A stretch of 64,000 nt of DNA from Escherichia coli (GTDB lineage: Bacteria > Pseudomonadota > Gammaproteobacteria > Enterobacterales > Enterobacteriaceae), in assembly GCF_051903065.1 (NCBI RefSeq), contig NZ_CP178438.1; one strand, given 5' to 3'. The notes below the pieces were generated by a model. That model had not been told where the DNA came from and did no database searches. It saw only the letters and a program-made list of their open reading frames with translations. This document shows, one piece after another, positions 25,275 to 25,533 of the stretch; within the stretch, counting starts at the first letter, position 1; every line of letters begins with the position of its first letter. The position numbers were made by a program, and so were the translations under genes.

Positions 25275-25370
25275 ATGATCAACACAAATATGAAATATTG
25301 GTCCTGGATGGGTGCATTTTCTCTGTCGATTCTCTTCTGGGCCGAACTCCTCTGGATCATTACTCACTGA
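25275..25370 (+). CDS. candidate 31-aa single-TM small protein upstream of acnA
   Basis: atg at 25275 preceded by aaggg about 10 nt upstream; product MINTNMKYWSWMGAFSLSILFWAELLWIITH is hydrophobic; followed by GC hairpin 25377-25392. Confidence 0.35.
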   Translation: MINTNMKYWSWMGAFSLSILFWAELLWIITH

Positions 25371-25533
25371 TCCTTGACCCCGCTGCGGCGGGGTTGTCAT
25401 TTGCTTTGCCACAAGGTTTCTCCTCTTTTATCAATTTGGGTTGTTATCAAATCGTTACGCGATGTTTGTGTTATCTTTAATATTCACCCTGAAGAGAATC
25501 AGGGCTTCGCAACCCTGTCATTAAGGAGGAGCT

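Follow-up and report, generated by a model that had tools for sequence, protein, structure and literature searches.

The window analyzed here, a stretch of 64,000 nucleotides of Escherichia coli DNA, carries a small open reading frame (ORF) that lies downstream of ymiA and yciX and upstream of acnA, whose start is at 25534 (Table 1). The translation product of this ORF is MINTNMKYWSWMGAFSLSILFWAELLWIITH. It had originally been put forward as a candidate hydrophobic small ORF; the ORF stands, while the label of candidate does not, as it is ymiC, the named gene of a validated small membrane protein, and the hairpin behind it is the terminator of ymiA-yciX-ymiC, so that what lies here was already known and is not new. 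RefSeq gives the product as 'small membrane protein YmiC', the counterpart in K-12 MG1655 is b4741 (1335572-1335667), and the record NZ_CP083585, which has an identical locus, annotates ymiC at exactly the positions listed in Table 1. Compared with K-12, the allele in the window encodes I19 in place of M19 (30 of 31 residues identical) and shows two further synonymous changes within the ORF.

Profile searches placed the protein firmly in its family. It scored 67.5 bits against the NCBIfam equivalog NF041484 (cut-off 42; profile positions 2-30 of 30) and 84.8 bits against Pfam PF23694 (YmiC; cut-off 27; positions 1-31 of 31), and it contains the full family core KYWSW...F..S.LFW.(E/Q)L.W. With scores well above both cut-offs and the same position between yciX and acnA, the likeness is that of the same gene. 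A megablast search of 5,426 complete E. coli genomes with positions 24800-25600 gave a match in 5,421, and ymiA, yciX, ymiC and acnA were annotated under the match in every record listed. The RefSeq annotation also agrees with the neighbours named in the original prediction, namely ymiA-yciX upstream and acnA downstream.

Table 1 Features of the ymiC locus, with positions in the window
Feature	Position	Strand	Remarks
ymiA	24851..24991	+	Annotation; NCBIfam NF000536, Pfam PF22868; first cistron of the operon
yciX	24994..25161	+	Annotation; upstream cistron
Rfam RF02079 (STnc180) match	25202..25404	+	197.9 bits, gathering threshold 50; model 1-208 of 208
Conserved leader	25210..25244	+	Block followed by a stem-loop
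Leader block TACACCGCAGCAATA	25210-25224	+	TACAC(C/A)nCAGCAATA across genera
Leader stem-loop GTTGAG/CTCAAC	25229-25244	+	Stem sequence changes by genus
Shine-Dalgarno-like AAGGG	25262..25266	+	8 nt 5' of the ATG
ymiC CDS	25275..25370	+	31 codons and TGA (25368-25370); ATG start
Terminator hairpin	25375..25396	+	9 pairs; begins 5 nt past the ymiC stop
Hairpin core CCCCGC-TGCG-GCGGGG	25378-25393	+	4-nt loop
Interrupted U-rich tail TCATTTGCTTTGCC	25397..25410	+	Weaker than the TTTTCTTTT / TTTTTTGTTTT tails elsewhere
14-bp deletion CGGCGGGGTTGTCA	25386-25399		Hairpin 3' arm lost; ~1,145 of 5,421 genomes (~21%)
Hairpin CAGGGCTTCGCAACCCTG	25500-25517		acnA 5' UTR, just before its Shine-Dalgarno

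The Shine-Dalgarno-like motif is predicted to form a modest duplex with the anti-Shine-Dalgarno sequence (-5.0 kcal/mol in the window; mostly -2.8 to -3.8 kcal/mol at other loci, within a full range of -0.4 to -5.0); in other genera, this position is taken by GGTG or GGGT, which is weaker. There is also a second in-frame ATG (Met6) at 25290, immediately 5' of the KYWSW motif. Because an ATG is found there in only 24 of 73 sequences, the ATG at 25275 is the conserved start.

YmiC and its operon in earlier work

The gene was named by VanOrsdel et al. (2018; PMC6001520) after a chromosomally SPA-tagged protein had been detected, having earlier been an unidentified positive in ribosome profiling of tetracycline-inhibited cells. 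A later study (PMC11429745), which took YmiC as one of a set of 17 proteins, reported that it is induced by low Mg2+ (Mg2+ starvation), that its transcription depends on PhoQP and comes from the region 5' of ymiA-yciX-ymiC, and that a GFP-YmiC fusion is found at the cell periphery, that is, at the membrane; the design of the published fusion places the N terminus of YmiC in the cytoplasm. Neither deletion nor overexpression of ymiC gave a phenotype, the effect of overexpression on growth being negligible (PMC11429745). An independent ymiC promoter was considered and rejected, as a reporter of the region just 5' of ymiC showed negligible promoter activity in the same study. The evidence for translation and membrane localization is thus taken from the literature and concerns the K-12 allele.

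Of the checks suggested when the ORF was first noted, ribosome profiling and a tagged fusion had therefore both been carried out with a positive outcome: the ORF scored positive with tetracycline, the chromosomal SPA tag yielded a protein (PMC6001520) and GFP-YmiC went to the membrane (PMC11429745). The reading of the ORF as a translated small membrane protein with a single helix is supported by the RefSeq annotation, by both family models and by the tagged protein. The gene received its name in 2018, and how YmiC is expressed and regulated and where it is located have been published, so that identifying it in the window adds nothing new in itself; the case has value as a control, in which sequence alone was enough to recognize an authentic gene for a small membrane protein together with its terminator.

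YmiA resembles YmiC in several respects: it, too, is small and predicted to be a membrane protein, its gene is transcribed together with ymiC in a PhoQP-dependent manner, and it localizes to the membrane (PMC11429745). It forms a separate family, however, and is more conserved, and its overexpression causes a growth defect (PMC11429745) whereas that of YmiC does not. YciX, the product of the cistron between them, matched no Pfam or NCBIfam model, and its identity across genera (32-82%) is far below that of YmiA (62-98%) and of the YmiC core; yciX has been placed in the Cpx regulon by a Salmonella study. An information-theory scan (PMC2189734) predicted a strong cluster of Fur sites at -371 of acnA, which corresponds to about position 25163 of the window (25160-25200), an AT-rich stretch directly 3' of the yciX stop and 5' of ymiC. 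Judging from this position, the predicted cluster might concern ymiC, which was unannotated at the time of the scan.

Conservation of ymiC across the Enterobacteriaceae

We examined the distribution of YmiC at the protein and at the DNA level. A HMMER scan of 1.84 billion representative proteins retrieved only ten clusters, all of them with the core KYWSW...F..S.L(F/I)W.(E/Q)L, and the contigs of four diverged homologues all showed the order cysB-ymiA-(yciX)-ymiC-acnA. A degenerate DNA pattern for the YmiC core, run against one genome per species, gave 75 matches, 74 of which are enterobacterial loci. These loci represent around 20 named genera of the Enterobacteriaceae, including Escherichia, Salmonella, Citrobacter, Enterobacter, Kosakonia, Leclercia, Lelliottia, Cedecea, Trabulsiella, Atlantibacter, Franconibacter, Phytobacter, Pluralibacter, Buttiauxella and Yokenella, among others. 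A match in Agaribacillus (L036) was rejected as a chance occurrence of the pattern with no intact ORF.

The pattern fixed ten codons, and the invariance of those residues is therefore partly circular; the position of the stop, the start codon, the synteny and the 15 free codons are unaffected by it. The stop lies exactly 75 nt past the K codon of KYWSW in 72 of the 74 loci, with one at +72 and one in which the ORF ends with the contig. Likewise, an ATG is found 15-27 nt 5' of the same K codon in 72 of 73 sequences (GTG in the remaining one), and the length of YmiC across genera is 30-34 aa. Variation within the core codons is highest at third positions. The pN/pS ratio over all 25 core codons is 0.33 in frame, compared with 0.93 and 1.65 in the other two frames, and it is 0.60 over the 15 codons left free by the search pattern. 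Substitutions keep the hydrophobicity of the protein, and E or Q is found at core position 18 in 67 of the 70 unique core sequences. These patterns of substitution indicate that ymiC is under purifying selection, and the frame, open in the 74 enterobacterial loci of some 20 genera, has the conservation that had been proposed as a further check on the ORF.

Synteny is stable as well. In each of the 68 loci that extend far enough, the distance from the ymiC stop to the start of acnA is 156-284 nt (median 168.5), and upstream of ymiC the loci that reach far enough carry YmiA (68/68), YciX (71/73) and CysB (61/61).

Two of the records are filed under unexpected names. One is a 454-bp contig with 1.3x coverage, filed as Terrisporobacter mayombei, that carries a ymiC of the E. 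coli K-12 type (L022); the other, filed as Chryseobacterium sp. 18061, has a complete enterobacterial cysB-ymiA-yciX-ymiC-acnA locus (L067). Both probably reflect contamination or mislabelling in public assemblies. In the clinical E. coli strain EC931 (L089), ymiC carries an IS1 insertion at its 3' end (equivalent to about 25352-25370 of the window), which alters the C terminus of YmiC to give a 32-aa product and parts ymiC from acnA.

A conserved, probable terminator behind ymiC and its degradation in E. coli

A hairpin behind the ORF had also been noted at the outset, and it is indeed present and conserved across genera, although the end coordinate then given (25392) is one base short of the hairpin core. 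Six of its nine stem pairs are G-C, and it folds with -18 kcal/mol (z = -2.3 against shuffled sequences). The hairpin tail is TCATTTGCTT. Most loci have a stem-loop 1-19 nt past the ymiC stop, in the usual case between an A tract and a U tract, and the stems vary by genus (CCUCGC/GCGAGG, CCCGGC/GUCGGG, GCCCGAUAA/UUAUCGGGC and GCGCCCGA/UCGGGCG). In an alignment of 59 sequences, the consensus nine-pair helix is paired in 95.7% of cells, and five of the nine pairs show compensatory double-sided changes (29 cells). None of 500 shuffles reached the observed covariation score or percentage of pairing, and shifting the partner by one column lowered the pairing to 54-62%. Thirteen further sequences stand outside this alignment, as the search for a perfect stem failed in them. 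When 12 of these (all but L073) were re-folded, five proved to be bulged but clear terminators, three gave a hairpin that lacks a U tract (one of the three is REP-like), and four gave nothing significant; by this procedure, at least four loci of other genera (L015, L026, L031 and L077) have no significant hairpin past the ymiC stop. Taken together, the covariation and the flanking tracts point to a conserved intrinsic terminator that closes ymiA-yciX-ymiC, termination in vivo being inferred.

In E. coli this element is degraded. The tail GGGGTTGTCATTTGC is found in the window and in K-12, while E. whittamii, Escherichia sp. E1V33 and one divergent E. coli carry GGGGTTTTCTTTT; the stronger tails listed in Table 1 occur in other Escherichia species and in other genera. 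The U tract in the window is interrupted; the first eight bases of the tail hold five T, the number asked for by the 5-of-8 rule of the scan. Moreover, 1,146 of the 5,421 matching complete genomes match only as far as position 25385, and a query built on the deletion junction retrieved around 1,143 genomes, the same count. These genomes lack 14 bp, including the 3' arm of the hairpin (Table 1), and the sequence left behind has no fold (-4.7 kcal/mol, z = +0.31), while ymiC is intact and annotated in the carriers. Among the carriers listed are CFT073, UTI89, 536, S88, SE15, Nissle 1917, APEC O1, ATCC 25922 and the type strain DSM 30083, and these are classic strains of phylogroup B2. Genome comparison thus indicates that the terminator of E. 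coli is weak or degraded and that one large lineage has lost the hairpin. Since the ORF is kept where the terminator is lost, this argues that it is the protein, rather than the RNA structure, whose function is conserved in E. coli.

The Term-seq tables of Adams et al. (2021; PMC7815308) contain no 3' end between K-12 positions 1333823 and 1335835, in media that were not low in Mg2+. The absence of ends at the ymiC hairpin may reflect poor expression of the operon in those media.

The ymiC leader and the Rfam family STnc180

The region is also filed in Rfam as a non-coding RNA, a point that the original prediction, while right about the protein gene, had missed. The full model of STnc180 (RF02079) matches the window, reaching from the ymiC leader through the ORF to the terminator, and the 3' hairpin of the model is the ymiC terminator. 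The likeness therefore extends over the same stretch and the whole model, yet what is filed as non-coding encodes a conserved, translated protein. In Salmonella, Sittka et al. (2008; PMC2515195) found no small-RNA band for STnc180 but only signals of 500-2000 nt, likely from processed mRNA. Such signals are compatible with a ymiA-ymiC transcript of about 0.6 kb, and the 'sRNA' entry is better read as the mRNA of a small protein, ymiC.

Upstream of the ORF there is a conserved leader, made up of a sequence block and a stem-loop (Table 1). The part of the block that is invariant across genera is TACACnnCAGCAATA. The stem-loop has a median z of -2.06 when sequences are folded one by one (41 sequences); RNAalifold on a MAFFT alignment gave no consensus structure for the leader, as the variable hairpin fails to align. 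In the Rfam consensus structure, ACACC of the leader pairs with GGUGU of the Shine-Dalgarno region. Both sides of this pairing barely vary, so that no covariation signal is possible, and the pairing is broken in Kosakonia. The region of STnc180 and ymiC might conceivably act as a dual-function RNA.

The interval between ymiC and acnA

The proximal acnA transcript begins with U and then C (PMC5737558). This start fits T25484-C25485, which lies 3' of the ymiC hairpin and 50 nt before the acnA ATG. Cunningham and colleagues reportedly described, in 1997, a distal acnA promoter around 400 nt upstream, which would place ymiC on an acnA transcript. For ymiC to be on such a transcript, either such a distal promoter or read-through of the hairpin would be required. 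The original placement of the ORF within the acnA promoter region can be followed only in part: the proximal promoter lies beyond the hairpin, where the start site fits.

The sequence TGTTTGTGTTATCTTTA, reported as a PhoP-binding site in the acnA promoter of Salmonella (PMC10294627), occurs verbatim at 25463-25479 of the window. It lies between the ymiC hairpin and acnA, just 5' of the likely start at T25484-C25485. Based on this match, acnA and the ymiA operon may be under shared PhoP control.

Adams et al. (2021; PMC7815308) drew up a list of candidate upstream ORF (uORF) regulators, nine validated small ORFs that are followed within less than 200 nt by an RNA 3' end, and ymiC-acnA is one of them. 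The 3' end behind this suggestion is at K-12 position 1335835, which is position 25538 of the window, 4 nt into acnA. It was scored as Rho-independent and lies past the hairpin in the acnA 5' UTR, not past that of ymiC. In the literature we found no experiment on acnA expression in relation to ymiC translation, the pair appearing as a listed candidate only.

Alternative readings of the locus

Several other readings of the element were weighed against that of ymiC as a protein-coding gene. That the ORF arose by chance in an AT-rich intergenic region is a fair question to ask of the ORF taken alone, against which the odds are only mild: when its own bases are shuffled, the frame remains open in 22% of cases, 6% of these being equally hydrophobic. 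Because the frame, start and stop are conserved across genera, however, the ORF goes beyond chance, and with the matches to two curated families (NF041484 and PF23694) and the detected protein (PMC6001520) this reading is already refuted, its probability being next to nil. It is scarcely more credible that YmiC is a hydrophobic peptide resembling a type I toxin. YmiC is indeed a short hydrophobic peptide of one helix, and a preprint on the Shigella vapBC transcriptome groups ymiC with genes of toxin-antitoxin modules, but overexpression of YmiC has a negligible effect on growth, unlike that of DinQ (PMC11429745); the gene stays at a single syntenic position in every genus and does not occur as mobile or repeated copies; and the sole Rfam match is on the same strand, with no antisense RNA family. 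A non-coding sRNA, STnc180, in which the ORF would be incidental, could account for the full-length RF02079 match at 197.9 bits and for the two conserved stem-loops, that of the leader and that of the 3' end. It does not account for the coding constraint (the codon-position pattern, the pN/pS ratios, and the fixed start and stop) or for the detection of the YmiC protein (PMC6001520), and only signals of 500-2000 nt, with no discrete small transcript, were seen in Salmonella (PMC2515195); we regard it as highly improbable.

A more serious rival holds that ymiC is mainly a regulatory uORF or leader peptide for acnA, its translation gating read-through and the peptide itself being secondary. The adjacency and spacing of ymiC and acnA are invariant across genera, a ribosome that ends translation at 25370 would sit over the 5' arm of a hairpin that lies 5 nt from the stop, the E. 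coli terminator is weak, and a distal acnA promoter around 400 nt upstream would put ymiC on an acnA transcript. The pair is also on the candidate list of PMC7815308, and since a PhoP site has been described in the acnA promoter (PMC10294627), PhoP may act on both units. However, the 3' end that supports the suggestion is misplaced, being inside acnA and past another hairpin; a strong canonical terminator separates ymiC from acnA in most genera, and the acnA promoter sits 3' of the hairpin; and YmiC is both constrained by purifying selection as a transmembrane helix and delivered to the membrane, neither of which a leader peptide needs. Regulatory uORFs such as mdtU, upstream of mdtJI, offer a comparison: ymiC, too, is a validated small ORF, sits immediately 5' of a larger gene in the same orientation and is a candidate in PMC7815308, but between it and acnA lie a conserved intrinsic terminator and acnA's own promoter, and its peptide is a conserved membrane helix. 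A mainly regulatory role for ymiC thus seems unlikely.

A further reading is that the E. coli terminator is a decaying insulator, its U tract weakened in K-12-type strains and its 3' arm deleted in the lineage of the classic B2 strains, in which case PhoQP-driven transcription would read through into acnA and the read-through would be modulated by ribosomes terminating on ymiC. We consider this doubtful, if somewhat easier to entertain. If true, Mg2+ and envelope signals would bear on the stress aconitase AcnA, more strongly or less so depending on the lineage. A terminator that is conserved in the Enterobacteriaceae and weakened or deleted in E. coli offers a natural test of transcriptional coupling between acnA and the operon.

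A model for the operon and for YmiC

The reading that we favour, with high confidence, is that of ymiC as a membrane protein gene and the last cistron of a PhoQ-PhoP operon which is closed by an intrinsic terminator; that YmiC works by helix packing is a less certain part of it. At low Mg2+, a promoter 5' of ymiA is activated by PhoQ-PhoP to give a ymiA-yciX-ymiC transcript, whose third and last cistron, ymiC, is translated into a 31-residue protein with one transmembrane helix. The hairpin and its U-rich tail would serve as the intrinsic terminator of the operon, presumably a leaky one in E. coli, and would separate it from acnA, which has its own promoter around 90 nt further 3'. In the membrane, the YmiC helix may pack against a larger inner-membrane protein and modulate this partner under Mg2+ or envelope stress.

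The small proteins MgrB, MgtS and PmrR, which are also under PhoP/PhoQ control, act by binding larger membrane proteins (PhoQ, MgtA/PitA and LpxT, respectively). YmiC is like them in that they are short inner-membrane proteins with a single helix, induced at low Mg2+, but no sequence relation between them and YmiC was found and YmiC has no deletion or overexpression phenotype, which makes this an analogy and not a case of membership. By this analogy, the chances that YmiC is a helix-packing modulator of a larger membrane protein stand at about even. The best 19-residue hydropathy window of YmiC scores 1.67 (Kyte-Doolittle, residues 12-30). On a helical wheel, K7, W11, F15, S18, W22 and L25 fall within an arc of 80 degrees and so form one face, and the polar E/Q24 is buried inside the helix. 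The conserved face and the buried E/Q provide concrete residues for mutation in a search for the partner.
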